DNA of 64,000 nt from an uncultured Actinomycetota bacterium (GTDB lineage: Bacteria > Actinomycetota > Thermoleophilia > Gaiellales > F1-60-MAGs149), in NCBI GenBank assembly GCA_963767885.1, contig CAVYFW010000014.1, positions 24,420 through 88,419 of the forward strand, in the 5' to 3' direction. Each line of letters begins with the position of its first letter. Position 1 is the first letter of the stretch. Of this stretch, positions 1 to 55,552 are shown piece by piece. The position numbers were made by a program, and so were the translations under genes. Under the pieces are notes generated by a model that worked only from the letters and a program-made list of their open reading frames with translations, was not told the DNA's origin and did no database searches.

Positions 1-1285
1 GCAGCAGCGAGGCGTCGAGCGCACGGGCGAACCAGGCCCCGAGCTCGGTCGCCGCCCAGTCGTGCGGCGAGCCGGTGAAGGGCACGAGCACCGGGCCGCG
101 CGGCACGCCGTCGCCGACCACCACCGCCACGTCGCACGGCGCGTCGGCCAGCAGCGTCAGCAGGCGCGCGTCCTCCAGCAGGCCGTCCGGCGCGTCGACC
201 AGCACGACCGACGCGTCCTGCTCGGCGGCGAGCCGCGCGAGGTCGGAGCCCGGGGTCAGCGAGGTGAAGGCGGCGACCCGCACGTGCGCCGCAAGCGACC
301 CCGTGGCGGCGCGCGCGTCGTGCACCGCCCGCACCGCGGCGGGCAGCGCCAAGGCGTCGCCGACCGTGGTGGCGGCGACGATCTCGCGCTCCGCGTCGCT
401 GGCCAGCAGGCCCGCCAGCTCCAGCAGACGGCCGAGCGCGGCGGTCGCGAGGGCGGCGACGGCGATCGTCGGCCGGGGCGCGGGCCGCGGCGCGGCCGGC
501 GACACGGCGTCACGCGCCGGTGCGGCGTCGGTGGCCGGCGCGGCGAGGGCGGGGTCGTGGCGCAGGATCGCGCGCTCCAGGTCCTGCAGCGCGGCGCTGG
601 GCTCCAGCCCGAGCTCGTCGACGAGCACCTGCCGGGCGGCGCGGTACGCGGCGAGCGCGTCCGCCTGGCGCCCGCAGCGGTAGAGGGCGAGCATGCGCAG
701 GGCGTGCGGCCCCTCGCGCAGCGGGTGCGCGGCGACGAGGTCCTCGAGCTCCGCGGCCGCGACGGCGTGACGGCCCAGCTCCAGCTCGGCCTCCAGCCGC
801 CGTTCGACGGCGATCAGCCGCAGCTCGTCGAGCCGCGCCGCCACCGGCCGCAGCACGCCGGCGGTGGCGAGGTCGGCCAGCGCCGGGCCCCGCCACAGCG
901 TGAGGGCGCTCGCCAGCGCCGCCCGGGCATCCTCCGCGCGGCCCTCCCGCAGCAGGGCGGCGCCCTCCGCGGCGCGGCGCTCGAAGCGGGCGACGTCGAC
1001 GGCGGCGGGGTCGACCCGCATCAGGTAGCCCGGGTCGCGGGTCTGGATCGCATCGCGCCCGAGCTCCTTGCGCAGCGCCGAGACGTGGCCCTGCACGACG
1101 TTGGCGGCCGTGTCGGGCGGCTCCTCCGGCCACGTCTCGTCGATCAGCCGGTCGACCGGGACGACCTGCCCGGCGTTCAGCACGAGCACCGCGAGCACCG
1201 TCCGCTGGCGCGTCCCGCCGAGCCGCGCCGGCCGTCCGTCGACGTGGGCCTCGAGCGGCCCGAGCAGGCCGTAGGCCGTCGCCAT
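1..1285 (-). CDS. AfsR/SARP-family transcriptional regulator (winged HTH + BTAD) with C-terminal USP-like region; 3' end runs off the window
   Basis: Manual translation from ATG at 1285: MATAYGLLGPLEAHVDGRPARLGGTRQRTVLAVLVLNAGQVVPVDRLIDETWPEEPP...; BTAD motifs HPLREGPHALRMLALYRCGRQADAL and LVDELGLEPS. Absent from ORF track because no stop occurs in the window. Confidence 0.85.
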   Translation of the reverse strand, partial: MATAYGLLGPLEAHVDGRPARLGGTRQRTVLAVLVLNAGQVVPVDRLIDETWPEEPPDTAANVVQGHVSALRKELGRDAIQTRDPGYLMRVDPAAVDVARFERRAAEGAALLREGRAEDARAALASALTLWRGPALADLATAGVLRPVAARLDELRLIAVERRLEAELELGRHAVAAAELEDLVAAHPLREGPHALRMLALYRCGRQADALAAYRAARQVLVDELGLEPSAALQDLERAILRHDPALAAPATDAAPARDAVSPAAPRPAPRPTIAVAALATAALGRLLELAGLLASDAEREIVAATTVGDALALPAAVRAVHDARAATGSLAAHVRVAAFTSLTPGSDLARLAAEQDASVVLVDAPDGLLEDARLLTLLADAPCDVAVVVGDGVPRGPVLVPFTGSPHDWAATELGAWFARALDASLL

Positions 1286-18800: not shown

Positions 18801-18881
18801 GAGCGCGTCGTACCCAGCGCCGGCGCCCGTCCAAACGCCGACGCGCCGGCGCCTACGCGCGCGCGAGCAGGGACTCGATCG

Positions 18882-20544
18882 TCATGCGCGCCGCAGCCGG
18901 TAGAGGAGCACGTCGTCCACGGCGATCGGCTCGACCCCCAGGCTGGAGAAGAGCTGGCGCCAGTTGCCGGGGTAGCCGCGCTGGACGACGATCGAGGTGA
19001 CGCCCTTGTCGCGCACGAAGCGCTGCAGCTCCTCCTCGGCGTTGGCGGGCTCGGCGCCGCCGTAGAGGGTGTAGACGATCGGGTACGCCGCGTACGGGTC
19101 GGGCAGCACGGCCGCCGCGTAGCCGCCGGCGAGGTCGAACCAGTTGTCGGTCGTCGCCTGCCAGTACATGCTGTTGCCGCGCACGCCGTACGGCACGACG
19201 ATCACGCGCTCGTCCTTCGCGATGTACTGCTTGTAGGTGCCGTCGGCGAAGAACTTCGGCACCGGCACCTCGGTCCGCCACCAGCCGCCGTGCGGGTTCG
19301 GCATCAGCAGCAGCACGCTCAGCCCGATCAGCGCCCAGCGCCACGGGCTCGACGGCCGCTGGGCGATCCACAGCGACGCCAGCACGGCGACCGCGAGGGC
19401 GGTGTAGACCACGAACCGCGTGGGCAGCGCGAGGCGCACGAGCGGGAAGTGCTCGGTGTACTGCCAGGGGAGCTTGATGGTGGGGATGCCGCCGATGGTC
19501 AGGTGCGCGCCGAGAGCGCAGACGAACGCGACGACCGCCACCGTCACGAGCACCCGCCCGGCGACCGTGCGGCGGAAGGCGAACGCGGCGCAGAGGAAGA
19601 CGATCAGCAGCGGCAGCGGGCGTGTAGGCCAGCTGCTCCGTGAGGTTGCCGACGAAGCGGGCCGAGACGTCGGCGAAGTCCTGGGAGAAGAGCCACGTGA
19701 CCTGCGTCGGGTAGAAGAGGTTGTCGACGTCCGCGACGTAGGTCTTGGGCTGCAGGCCCTCGTGGATCGGGTTCGGGTGCGCGAGCGCGAAGTACAGGTA
19801 CGGGCTGACGATGACGGCCATCGCCGCGACCGCCACCCCGGCGCCGGCCGCAGTGCGCACGAGCTGGCGGCGCAGCCGCTCGTCGGCGACGACGATGGCG
19901 ACCCCGAGCGCGAGCGTGCCGGCGAGCAGGGCCGACATCAGCACCTCGAGGAAGATCAGGAACTGGCCGACCAGCACCGCCGTGAGGCTGACGACGTAGC
20001 GGCGGTCCGAGATCTCGCCGCGCGCGTGGCGGACGGCGAGCAGCGCCGCGAGCGGCAGCAGGAACACCAGCGCCAGGTTCACGTGGTTCAGGGTCTGGCC
20101 GAGCATGTAGCTCGAGAACCCGAACAGGTAGCCGCCGGCCACCGAGGCGTACCAGTTGCGCGTGAGCTCGCGGCAGAGCAGGAACGCCGTGAAGGCGGCG
20201 AGGGCCGGGGCGGCGAGCGCGAGCAGGTTGTAGGCCACGACCGGCCCGACCGTCGCCGTCAGCGGCACCATCAGCAGGGCCGGCCCGGGGATGACGGTCG
20301 CCCAGGCCAGGTTGAAGCCGCCAGGCGCGTAGATGTCGTCCGTCAGGAAGGGGTGGACGCCCTCCGTGACGACCTGCTTCCAGTGGACCAGGGACCACAT
20401 GAAGAAGCCCTGGTCCGAGCCGAACGACCCGACGACGGACCCCTGCGGGTCGGTCAGGGCCGGGAAGCCGAAGAAGGCGATCGAGCAGGCGCAGTACAGC
20501 GCCAGCGCGGCGACCGTGCCCCACCGCGTGTCCAGGAAGCGCAC
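18882..20544 (-). CDS. Polytopic membrane protein, probable GT-C-fold glycosyltransferase-like (frameshift near 19620)
   Basis: N-terminal loop with SDQGFFMW...APGGFNLAW, many TM helices, C-terminal MYWQA/GGY segment; split over ORFs 18853..20544 and 18882..19553. Confidence 0.65.
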
Positions 20545-20582
20545 GGGCCGGAAGCGTACGGGGTGGCGCTCGTCGGGGCGTC

Positions 20583-20620
20583 AAAAGAGGAGCGGGCGGC
20601 CACAATGGGCCGCCCGCTCC
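20583..20620 (-). terminator. Intrinsic terminator
   Basis: Perfect 13-bp stem GGAGCGGGCGGCC (20589-20601 / 20608-20620), 6-nt loop, followed on the minus strand by TCTTTT. Confidence 0.85.
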
Positions 20621-20805
20621 CGGTATCTCGCAGCGTATTCGTAGGGGACGCCGCCCGGCCGCGCGTCATCTCGACGCCGCGATCCGGACTACCCCAACGC
20701 TCGGCTCTGCGATTCCCCGTCGGTTCAGGGGTTTCGCCCCCTACGTGCGAGTACCTCCACTAGCCGAACTGTCAGTACTCAGTCGGACCACCTCCTTTCC
20801 GCGGT
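20583..20805 (-). ncRNA. Candidate ~220-nt structured RNA (or micro-ORF mRNA) with extended complementarity to the 16S rRNA 3' end
   Basis: Own promoter and terminator, several nested stems, GAAAGGAGGTGGTCC near the 5' end, more AT-rich than flanking genes, no long ORF of its own. Confidence 0.6.
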
Positions 20806-20811
20806 AGCAGC

Positions 20812-20841
20812 ACGGTACCACGGCCTCCGGTCGTCCGGCAA
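20812..20841 (-). promoter_or_regulatory. SigA-type promoter for the candidate RNA
   Basis: Minus strand TTGCCG (20841-20836), 18-nt spacer, TACCGT (20817-20812) preceded by TGG (extended -10). Confidence 0.55.
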
Positions 20842-20880
20842 TCCGCCATCTGGACCTACCAGGACGCCGGTTGATCCGTC

Positions 20881-21451
20881 CTACTGGTCGACGAAGTTCT
20901 TCCAGTACTGGCTCGGCGTCGGCCCGACCTGGCCCTGGTACTTCGAGCCCAGCCCGCCGCTCCCGTACGGCTGCTCCGCCGCCTCGCTCAGGGCGAGGAA
21001 CGAACACCTGGCCGATCTTCATGCCCGGATAGAGCGTGATCGGCAGGTTGGCGACGTTGGAGAGCTCGAGCGTGACGTGCCCGTCGAAGCCCGGGTCGAC
21101 GAACCCCGCGGTCGAGTGCACCTGCAGCCCGAGGCGACCGAGCGAGCTCTTGCCCTCGAGCCGCGCCACGATGTCGTCCCCGAGCGCCAGGCGCTCCAGC
21201 GTCGCGCCGAGCACGAACTCGCCGGGGTGCAGGATGAAGGCCTCGTCGTCGGGCGTCTCGACGAGCTCCGTCAGGTCCGGCATCGGCACCTTGACGTCGA
21301 TGAACCCGTAGCGGCTGTTGCGGAAGACGCGGAAGCGGCGATCGCAGCGCACGTCGATGGACGCGGGCTGGATCAGCGCGGGGTCGAACGGGTCGAGGCG
21401 GATGCGCCCCTCGCCGATCGCGCGGCGGATGGCGCCGTCGGACAGGACCAT
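20881..21451 (-). CDS. dcd: dCTP deaminase (frameshift near 21003)
   Basis: [40 protein letters not shown]; C-terminal [18 protein letters not shown] in the shifted frame ending at TAG 20881. Confidence 0.93.
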
Positions 21452-54829: not shown

Positions 54830-55489
54830 GCCGCCACGTCCGGCGCGAGGGCCTCGTCCGCCGGCTGCGCGAGCTCGACGGCACCTCGGGCCGGACGACG
54901 TACGCGGGCGGCGCGGCGATCGTGGAGCACGGCGGCGAGCGCTGGACCGTGCGGCCGCCGTTCGGCCTCCAGCACGAGGGCGAATACGCGCGGGTGGAGG
55001 CCGGGCCGCTGCTGGCTGCGCTGGAGGCCGACCACCGCGTGGCGGCGCTGCTGGTGCGGCTCGGCGGCTACGCGGTCGGGGTCTTCGAGGGCGAGCAGCT
55101 CGTGGCGTCCAAGGTCGGCAGCCGCCTGGTGCACGGACGGCACCGCGCGGGCGGCTCGTCGGCCAACCGCTTCCGCCGCCGCCGCGAGAAGGAGGTGCGC
55201 GAGCTCCACGAGAAGGCGGCCGGCGAGGCCTGGCGGGTGCTGGGGCCCTGGCTCGATCGGGTCGACCGCGCGGCCCTGGGCGGCGACCGCGCGGCGGTGC
55301 GCGGCACGCTCGAAGCGGAACCGCGTCTGCAGCGGCTGGAGGCGATCGCCCTGCCGCGCTTCTTCACGGTGCCCGGACCCGCGCCGCGACGTGCTGGAGC
55401 GCCTGCCGTTCGACGTCTACGCGGCCGAGCTCGAGGTGGAGCCGATCGACGCGGAGGGCGGCTACCCTCGCTCCGCACCGCCCCCGTAG
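54826..55489 (+). CDS. acVLRF1-family release-factor homologue (frameshift near 55380; 3' end uncertain)
   Basis: LLVRLGGYAVGVF, SKVGSRLVHGRHRAGGSSANRFRRRRE, LGGDR, PDPRRDVL. Confidence 0.8.
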
Positions 55490-55552
55490 CTCAGGGGATA
55501 GAGCAGCGGTTTCCTAAACCGCGTGTCGGATGTTCGAGTCATCCCGGGGGCA
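55480..55552 (+). tRNA. tRNA-Arg(CCT)
   Basis: Acceptor GCCCCCG/CGGGGGC, D arm TAGCTCAGGGGATAGAGC, anticodon arm GCGGT-TTCCTAA-ACCGC (CCT at 55513-55515), T loop TTCGAGT; CCA not encoded. Confidence 0.96.

Follow-up and report, generated by a model that had tools for sequence, protein, structure and literature searches.

A divergent Gaiellales relative of the actinobacterial RNA Ms_IGR-5: complement to the 16S rRNA tail, conserved short reading frame and a stop codon paired in a covarying helix

Among the structured RNAs of Actinomycetota, Ms_IGR-5 (RF02471) has reportedly been part of Rfam since a study of Hfq in Mycobacterium smegmatis. In the available portion of one account, IGR-5 of this species is located between MSMEG_5794 and MSMEG_5795, is capped with nicotinamide adenine dinucleotide (NAD), has its start mapped to an A by NAD captureSeq and is described as validated but uncharacterized (bioRxiv 10.1101/2021.12.14.472595). 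The accessible parts of other reports state that Ms_IGR-5 overlaps ncMSMEG15794c (PMC10454040), that homologues in Streptomyces lividans are Rfam-detected and validated by RNA sequencing (PMC8079986), that the S. avermitilis homologue is a stand-alone transcription unit (PMC8780764) and that ribosome profiling of M. abscessus and M. smegmatis shows significant ribosomal reads on the homologues (PMC4974804). Throughout this text the RNA figures as conserved and uncharacterized. Within the text available from our literature search, no description of a 16S-tail complement or of a mini-frame was found for any RNA of the Ms_IGR-5 type, and names of the ncRv081x type did not occur; in the accessible text of two large motif surveys, the term Thermoleophil- is absent from both, Gaiell- and Solirubrobacter from one and Rubrobacter from the other. 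Here we describe an RNA gene on the minus strand of a 64,000-nucleotide stretch of DNA from an uncultured Gaiellales bacterium of the class Thermoleophilia (contig CAVYFW010000014.1, positions 24,420 to 88,419), the whole of which we call the window and in whose numbering all positions are given. As judged from sequence comparison, the window RNA is a divergent Gaiellales-type homologue of Ms_IGR-5; it is not new in kind, and represents a variant of a known, unexplained family whose most conserved parts are those expected to engage the ribosome.

The kinship is not visible from the window directly. The Rfam scan of the window at gathering thresholds returned only a tRNA at 55480-55552 (+; 63.1 bits), the scan of the region at E<=10 gave only chance-level matches, mostly over the terminator and with no RF02471 among them, and RF02471 has no match in the source genome (G000) at E<=0.01. 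The gathering threshold of RF02471 (45 bits), which the window does not reach, is an operational cut-off and not a biological feature. At E<=0.01 the RF02471 model matches 49 of the 151 sampled genomes of the phylum, 19 of them above threshold; on intermediates from other classes of the phylum (loci L204, L205, L209, L210 and L214) it scores 25-39 bits, below the threshold, and in genomes G054 and G269 its matches coincide with loci found by a degenerate pattern of the 5' half and by our own model R1. The latter, built from 29 sequences of the window's order only, matches all 26 loci L204-L229 (14 RF02471 loci and 12 pattern loci) with E from 2.3e-8 to 0.042. All 14 RF02471 loci are among these (E 4.5e-7 to 0.042), and on them the R1 match starts at the first base of the RF02471 match. 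The window's ACCGCGGAAAGGAGGTGGTCC agrees with the 5' consensus of RF02471, ACAcAaGGAAGGAgGugGuCc. The RF02471-type copies in turn carry the -10 box, the +1 A, GGAAGGAGGUGGUCC or a perfect GAAAGGAGGUGAUCC, a start codon and a frame of about 12 codons, a plan recognised by script in 13 of the 14 copies and by eye in the fourteenth. The original prediction, which was made from the sequence alone, had not recognised the RNA as transfer-messenger RNA, SRP RNA, RNase P RNA or a known riboswitch; the reciprocal R1 and RF02471 matches show a distant homologue of RF02471. The Rfam search that it had suggested gave no family match for the RNA itself and RF02471 matches for relatives elsewhere.

The features held in common are extensive. 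In both the window RNA and Ms_IGR-5 a +1 A stands behind a -10 box and is followed by a 5' motif of the GRRGGRGGUGRUCC type, a start codon 4-12 nt further on, a frame of 10-14 codons with a GAGGU motif in it, a closing helix that contains the stop codon, a bulge of the AAUNC type (as in the Rfam consensus) and CACC at the 3' end of this helix; both are single-copy with varying neighbours. In contrast to Ms_IGR-5, the window RNA has a larger inner domain of another make-up, and its frame is offset from GAGGU by one base, giving a different peptide. It also lacks the long GUCC-loop hairpin of the 3' part (model positions ~126-178), the closing helix leading directly to a plain terminator. A hairpin of related appearance was seen in eight loci of another lineage type, which we call type C (L176, L186, L187, L191, L193, L195, L199 and L201): a conserved GCCGG-loop-CCGGC stem lies about 20-40 nt past the closing helix and is absent from the window's type. 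Its loop contains GUCCC, which is complementary to GGGAC within the mini-frame, and loop and frame may form a long-range contact that translation would break; a GUCC loop of similar kind appears in the Rfam consensus.

Homologues were expected in related genomes by the original prediction, and a DNA search found the element in 36 of 41 of these, with one copy in the source assembly. The degenerate 5'-half pattern occurs in at least 118 stretches of the species collection and, among the matches listed, those with a lineage in the title are metagenome-assembled genomes of Gaiellaceae, Gaiellales, Gaiella or Thermoleophilia. R1 matches 67 of 151 genomes of the class, strongly in the window's order and more weakly but clearly in four other families; by family, the counts are 24/26 (f6), 11/12 (f9), 6/11 (f11) and 1/1 (f12), with no match in three families (0/74 genomes). 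The distant matches retain the 5' motif, GGAGGU, the closing helix and the stop codon around a smaller inner domain. A joint model, R2, matches 73 of 151 phylum genomes at E<=0.001, in 72 of which there is a single match. It is complete in f14 (10/10) and f21 (10/10), counts that rest partly on genomes flagged as unpublished (the RF02471 and R2 tallies include G185, G201, G229 and G296 of f14, G261 of f21 and G267 of f47, from which no sequence enters the present account), and finds none in f24 (0/10), f26 (0/9) or f25 (0/7). The family thus extends far past the current Rfam model, into Thermoleophilia-type lineages, and occurs once per genome in roughly half of the phylum genomes sampled; these findings argue for a revision of the Rfam model.

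Conservation of the complement to the 16S rRNA 3' end and of the length of the micro open reading frame (micro-ORF) had been proposed as a check, and the complement and the micro-ORF turn out to be the most conserved features of the family. The complement GAAAGGAGGTGGTCC is found, as predicted, at 20799-20785 on the minus strand, and extends to 16 nt if G20800 is added. The 16S gene of the same genome (L181) ends in ...GCGGCTGGATCACCTCCTTTCT, an ending shared by four further 16S genes inspected (5/5), so the motif, which we refer to as a hyper-Shine-Dalgarno (hyper-SD) sequence, is complementary to all of the single-stranded tail; with RNAduplex the two form 16 pairs at -27.9 kcal/mol. A tail duplex of 15-17 bp and -25.5 to -31.1 kcal/mol is predicted in 223 of 223 loci (53 distinct strings) when the tail of the source genome is used for all of them, and it is uninterrupted in 214. 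The variants of the motif are A-to-G changes, with wobble pairs retained. A degenerate 12-mer of the motif occurs 8 times in the source genome and its reversed control 22 times; since such a 12-mer is not rare in this genome, the single occurrence is not significant on its own, but the conservation exceeds chance.

The 13-codon CTG..TAG micro-ORF of the original prediction is likewise present, and its start and frame are kept throughout the family. In the first 30 relatives an NTG start was found 8-11 nt past GGAGG, in frame with TAG or TAA, in every case, and in the larger set of distinct 5' halves of all types 156 of 165 have ATG, GTG, TTG or CTG 4-12 nt past the SD core and in frame with a stop. 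Three of the nine copies without a start call are artefacts (a false match, a truncated locus and a mis-anchoring by the script). When the three frames are compared, 155 of 161 copies have an NTG at this spacing that shares the frame of the stop codon, the other two frames scoring 41 and 1. The mini-frames of the 156 copies have 10-14 codons and end (TAG 138, TAA 14, TGA 4) 5-13 nt beyond a second SD-like motif, which is invariant in alignment A1 and present as GGAGGU or GAGGUG in all types. Within the window's order the distance from start to stop is 39 nt (70 sequences), 42 nt (9) or 36 nt (1), together 80 of 82 distinct 5' halves, while in the remaining two the alignment slipped or a canonical start is lacking; insertions and deletions between start and stop occur in threes. 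The second motif is read in two ways: GGA GGU in the window's order (..ASGGxRx before the stop) and in related type-B lineages (SGG...), GAG GUG in type-C lineages and RF02471-type copies (..TxEVAAx before the stop). In both, the frame is open from the start to the same paired stop codon, and residues 2-4 of the mini-peptide vary jointly with the stem of the hairpin P1, in which the start codon lies. Since the frame survives this shift relative to a conserved RNA motif, it would be translation up to the stop that is selected, and not the product. Ribosome loading and translation, rather than the peptide, therefore look like the selected feature, as far as comparative sequence can tell.

The frame runs into a long-range closing helix, P2, in which ACGUAGGGGGCG, stop codon included, pairs with CGUCCCCUACG at 20650-20640 (P2b), and GGUACUCGC with GCGAG-A-UACC at 20631-20622 (P2a). 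Over all modelled pairs, 86.8% of cells pair in an alignment to R1 of 100 matches, 98 of them distinct, compared with 36-44% in a control with slid partners. In P2b (helix 3) 92.2% of cells are paired and 11 of 11 pairs have changed on both sides; for P2a (helix 2) the figures are 90.1% and 5 of 9. The U and A columns of the paired stop codon are fixed (95 and 97 of 98), while the third column is solely G or A. Across 50 sequences of all types P2a is 92.6% and P2b 88.9% paired (slid controls 35-46%), and 17 of the 20 closing-helix pairs have changed on both sides. These counts lean towards the model, because the alignments were fitted to it and the sequences are related. In P1, 5 of 6 modelled pairs have changed on both sides and only 68% of cells are paired, since the region aligns poorly. 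The strong covariation of the closing helix is what the original prediction had asked of relatives, although the folding it proposed is not the one that covaries. Its AGGGG/CCCCT hairpin is contradicted, as the G-run after the stop codon pairs instead with the distal CCCCTACG, with 11/11 pairs changing on both sides, and a column that the prediction matched to an invariant C carries A in 53 of 98 sequences and changes together with the distal strand. Covariation also conflicts with two pairings of its bulged rod, TCGCAG and GGGG, and CTCGC pairs with GCGAG at 20631-20627.

Inside the closing helix, the sequence of the inner domain is highly conserved within the order and different in other orders. 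The C-run at 20732-20726 can pair with the G-run at 20695-20691 in 95% and with that at 20719-20715 in 75% of cases, and may stack on both. Two further pairings were tried and dropped: a long-range GGCUAG/CUAGCC pairing, into which, judged by eye, only invariant GGC/GCC pairs fit, and a local GGCG/CGCC pairing, which competes with the covarying CGC/GCG hairpin. The features are collected in Table 1.

Table 1. Elements of the RNA gene, in order of transcription
Feature	Position	Strand	Description
TTGCCG (-35 candidate)	18 nt upstream of TACCGT	-	read from sequence
-10 box TACCGT	20817-20812	-	TGG just before; 6 nt upstream of +1 A
Transcript start ACCGC	20805-20801	-	+1 = A20805, inferred from promoter spacing and conservation
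Hyper-SD GGAAAGGAGGTGGTCC	20800-20785	-	16 contiguous pairs, 2 of them G-U, with own 16S 3' tail
Hairpin P1	20786-20764	-	variable sequence, contains start codon; minimum free energy folds
Micro-ORF	20782-20741	-	CTG start 20782-20780, 13 codons, TAG stop 20743-20741
Second SD-like motif GGAGGT	20758-20753	-	9 nt ahead of stop codon
Closing helix, 5' strands	20755-20735	-	P2a 20755-20747; P2b 20746-20735 (holds stop codon)
Inner domain	20734-20651	-	C-run 20732-20726; G-runs 20719-20715 and 20695-20691; variable rod 20690-20651
Small hairpin CGC/GCG	20711-20709 with 20700-20698	-	100% paired, C-G to U-A changes
Closing helix, 3' strands	20650-20622	-	P2b 20650-20640; P2a 20631-20622
8-nt bulge AAUACGCU	20639-20632	-	between 3' strands of P2b and P2a
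Intrinsic terminator	20621-20583	-	13-14-bp GC hairpin 20621-20589, then UCUUUU 20588-20583; fold

The gene lies on the minus strand in the gap that separates dcd, with its stop codon at 20883-20881, from the next gene, with its GTG at 20544, and is about 223 nt long, from A20805 to the end of the terminator at about 20583. ACCGCGG begins at A20805, six bases past TACCGT. Over 164 distinct upstream sequences, TANNNT is found at -12 to -7 from the conserved A in 116, with T, A and T at its fixed positions in 124, 125 and 125; position 0 is A in 155 and is followed by an almost invariant CCGCGG, and no conservation is seen upstream beyond the -10 box, the -35 region included. The promoter suggested originally is therefore upheld in its TACCGT half, whereas TTGCCG is there in the sequence and is not conserved as a -35 element. 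The suggested terminator is present as a GC hairpin followed by TCTTTT that ends at 20583, with a hairpin and U-run at the same position in most of 30 relatives; a simple scan for sigma-70 promoter and terminator consensus sequences, which does not cover actinobacterial promoters, gave 0 sites at the locus and flagged neither. A 233-nt stretch across the gene folds with -123 kcal/mol, below all 200 dinucleotide shuffles (z = -4.76). The -10 box at a fixed distance, together with neighbours that vary, bears out the claim that this is an unannotated, independent structured RNA.

Matching RNA-library material was found as assembled contigs. A 129-nt contig from a soil RNA library covers 20695-20793 with 1 difference, and a low-depth contig of 177 nt covers 20453-20629, across the terminator; neither ends nor strand can be read from such contigs, DNA may be present in such libraries, and coverage gaps and depths are uninformative. 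Two RNA runs (X15 and X16), filed under different studies, have identical tables and are probably the same data set deposited twice.

What do these conserved elements do together? We propose that the RNA is ribosome-loaded and ribosome-gated, with selection keeping the act of binding and translating and not the peptide, a proposal to which we give an even chance of being right. Conservation is demonstrated for the promoter, the tail complement, the start, the frame, the second SD, the paired stop and the closing helix, and from these we infer the mechanism. Bases 6-21 of the transcript would pair with the entire free 16S 3' tail, so that a 30S subunit would be captured at the extreme 5' end. 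The start codon, 8 nt on, lies inside P1, and initiation would need this hairpin to open. The ribosome would then translate the 13-codon frame through the second GGAGGU and into P2, which elongation would melt, and would end at a UAG that takes part in the pairing of P2, where the anti-SD of the terminating ribosome could re-pair with the internal GGAGGU 9 nt upstream of the stop. Binding and translation would also switch the structured 3' domain back and forth between folded and unfolded forms, and a bound ribosome would protect the 5' end, as the STAB-SD does against RNase J. RNase J is encoded in the source genome. In the accessible text on the STAB-SD of Bacillus thuringiensis cry3A, a 30S subunit bound at the 5' end blocks the 5'-3' exonuclease RNase J1 (PMC4113751). 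The window RNA has in common with it an SD-like complement to 16S rRNA near the 5' end, from base 6 of the inferred transcript and with 16 pairs; the complement in the window's family is longer (16-17 nt) and, in contrast to the STAB-SD, which directs no initiation, is accompanied by a conserved start spacing and a closed frame (156/165). As an analogy, the STAB-SD is the closest working one for the 5' part.

More speculatively, RNAs of the Ms_IGR-5 type could form a phylum-wide class for sensing or holding ribosomes, one without a described counterpart, although we consider this unlikely. The 5' end would take the complete 16S tail and a frame of test length (10-14 codons) would drive the ribosome into the stop-codon helix. 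Such an RNA might report or buffer the supply of translation-competent 30S subunits (or of mature 16S 3' ends), or it might give ribosomes a parking place when cells are not growing, all of which we put forward only tentatively. The invariant core, that is the full-tail complement, start, short frame, second SD and stop in a helix, is a ribosome-engaging device and not the body of a small RNA (sRNA), so that a hitherto anonymous sRNA now comes with a hypothesis that can be tested in hosts as tractable as M. smegmatis and Streptomyces. If ribosome sensing were true, this would count as a translational control element of a new kind.

Several points weigh against the proposal of a ribosome-loaded and ribosome-gated RNA. 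An SD duplex of 16 bp may hinder translation instead of helping it. The CTG of the window is a weak start, used by only 11 of 156 copies, and sits in a hairpin; 6 of 165 copies (L135, L177, L184, L201, L214 and L215) are without a canonical start and have ATA, ATT, ATC or ACG at the homologous position. Outside the window's lineage T, E and V of the peptide are kept, as might be expected if the product mattered. The pair counts come from model-fitted alignments of relatives that are not independent, and the RF02471 model itself does not reach the window.

If the RNA were simply a tiny mRNA, the 12-14-residue peptide would be its product and the RNA structure would only tune stability and translation. 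Start, stop and frame are conserved, as this would require; the peptides outside the window's lineage have x-T-x-E-V-A/T-A/G-x in common, with a Thr codon whose third base varies (ACC, ACG, ACU, ACA), and homologues carry ribosome-protected reads in the part of that report available (PMC4974804). Yet the frame of the window's order is shifted relative to GGAGGU, so that ..ASGGxRx is unrelated to ..TxEVAAx, the N-terminal residues vary along with the stem of P1, those residues that are conserved fall on the RNA motifs GGAC and GAGGUG and on helix P2, and within the order conservation is higher in the non-coding inner domain than in the peptide, all of which make a peptide-centred function unlikely. 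Bacterial RNAs that combine a structured regulatory part with a short translated frame include SgrS/SgrT, RNAIII/hld and SR1/SR1P, whose conserved peptides have functions of their own. We know of no extended 16S-tail complement in these dual-function sRNAs, and they differ from the window's family in that its peptide is not conserved across the family. Action in trans on the ribosome pool, as a sponge or parking place for 30S or 70S particles or as a shield of the 3' tail of 16S rRNA, perhaps in cells that are not growing, would fit a complement that spans the free tail to its last base in 223/223 loci, at predicted energies (-25.5 to -31.1 kcal/mol) far stronger than those of an ordinary SD, and a second SD-like motif 9 nt ahead of the stop; a start codon, a fixed frame and a stop in a helix are all unneeded for such a role, and there is one copy per genome, so we rate it as distinctly unlikely.

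The order of mini-frame, helix and terminator is like that of leader-peptide attenuators, where translation of the mini-frame would decide whether the terminator forms and so control the downstream gene. In the window this gene (18853-20544, minus strand) encodes a membrane-like protein of 563 residues, and 14 relatives of the same family likewise have a homologous membrane-protein gene next to the RNA, downstream and on the same strand (identity 51-55% across ~290 residues); the low-depth contig at 20629-20453 also crosses the terminator. For a cis-acting leader of this kind, however, the nearest downstream gene would have to be co-directional, while among 153 distinct loci it is convergent in 97, co-directional in only 32 and not called in 24. 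Neighbours also differ among families, and inspection of folds and alignments by eye gave no conserved antiterminator pairing: between the 3' strand of P2 and the 5' arm of the terminator there is weak, generic G/C complementarity, and the G- and C-rich runs allow several weak alternatives. We consider control of the membrane-protein gene very improbable. The candidate upstream ORF of fthC (Narunsky et al., 2024) likewise has, in the accessible text, a purine-rich SD and a short frame with its stop in a stem before a terminator (PMC11109978), and motifs of this leader-peptide type differ from ours in standing upstream of one consistent gene, whereas here no single gene follows consistently and the next one is mostly convergent. 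Least credible of all is that the RNA is no gene or kind of its own, being either the 3' untranslated region of dcd or an RNA polymerase-binding RNA of the 6S/Ms1 type. The dcd gene ends 75 nt upstream on the same strand and precedes the RNA in many loci of the family; the conserved -10 box and the presence of dcd upstream in only 14 of 108 distinct loci speak against a 3' untranslated region, which the original prediction had named as an outcome that would undo its claim. It had also kept a 6S/Ms1 identity open; in favour of this, the RNA is a long, largely paired rod and, like 6S/Ms1, a stand-alone structured actinobacterial RNA of ~200 nt. This identity is now unlikely: there is no Rfam 6S match on the window, 3 of 5 relatives have 6S-model matches elsewhere at E<=0.001 (one above the Rfam cut-off), the closing helix leaves out the first 50 nt of the RNA whereas the 5' and 3' ends of 6S pair around a central bubble, and an SD and a frame are not 6S features. 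Two other identities were rejected: signal recognition particle RNA, matches to which lie elsewhere in 4 of 5 relatives, and a transfer-messenger or tRNA-like RNA, for which ARAGORN found nothing in 20300-21100 and Rfam gave no match.

Neighbouring genes were called with a filter on GC content at third codon positions in this high-GC DNA. Upstream of the RNA, the 108 ORFs scanned of 113 called comprise 41 O-methyltransferases (Methyltransf_3), 14 dCTP deaminases, 8 Rieske proteins and others. Since the neighbours vary, the RNA is neither the 3' untranslated region of dcd nor the leader of one gene. The source assembly has 25 contigs, 5.0 Mb and a completeness of 67%. In it, dcd changes frame at about 21003-21010 (minus strand), its N-terminal part lying in the ORF 20741..21451 and its last ~42 residues in another frame that ends at 20881, and an RNA-library contig of a relative is one base shorter at 21003; the RNase J gene (G000:C2:240089-241724) matches as two adjacent pieces (model positions 1-346 and 341-545). 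This suggests that the breaks in the two genes are frequent single-base insertion and deletion errors of the assembly and not real pseudogenes. In four loci of other orders (L185, L188, L192 and L203) a tRNA gene starts shortly past the terminator of the RNA, and the one in L188 is confirmed by Rfam at 272-344 (-).

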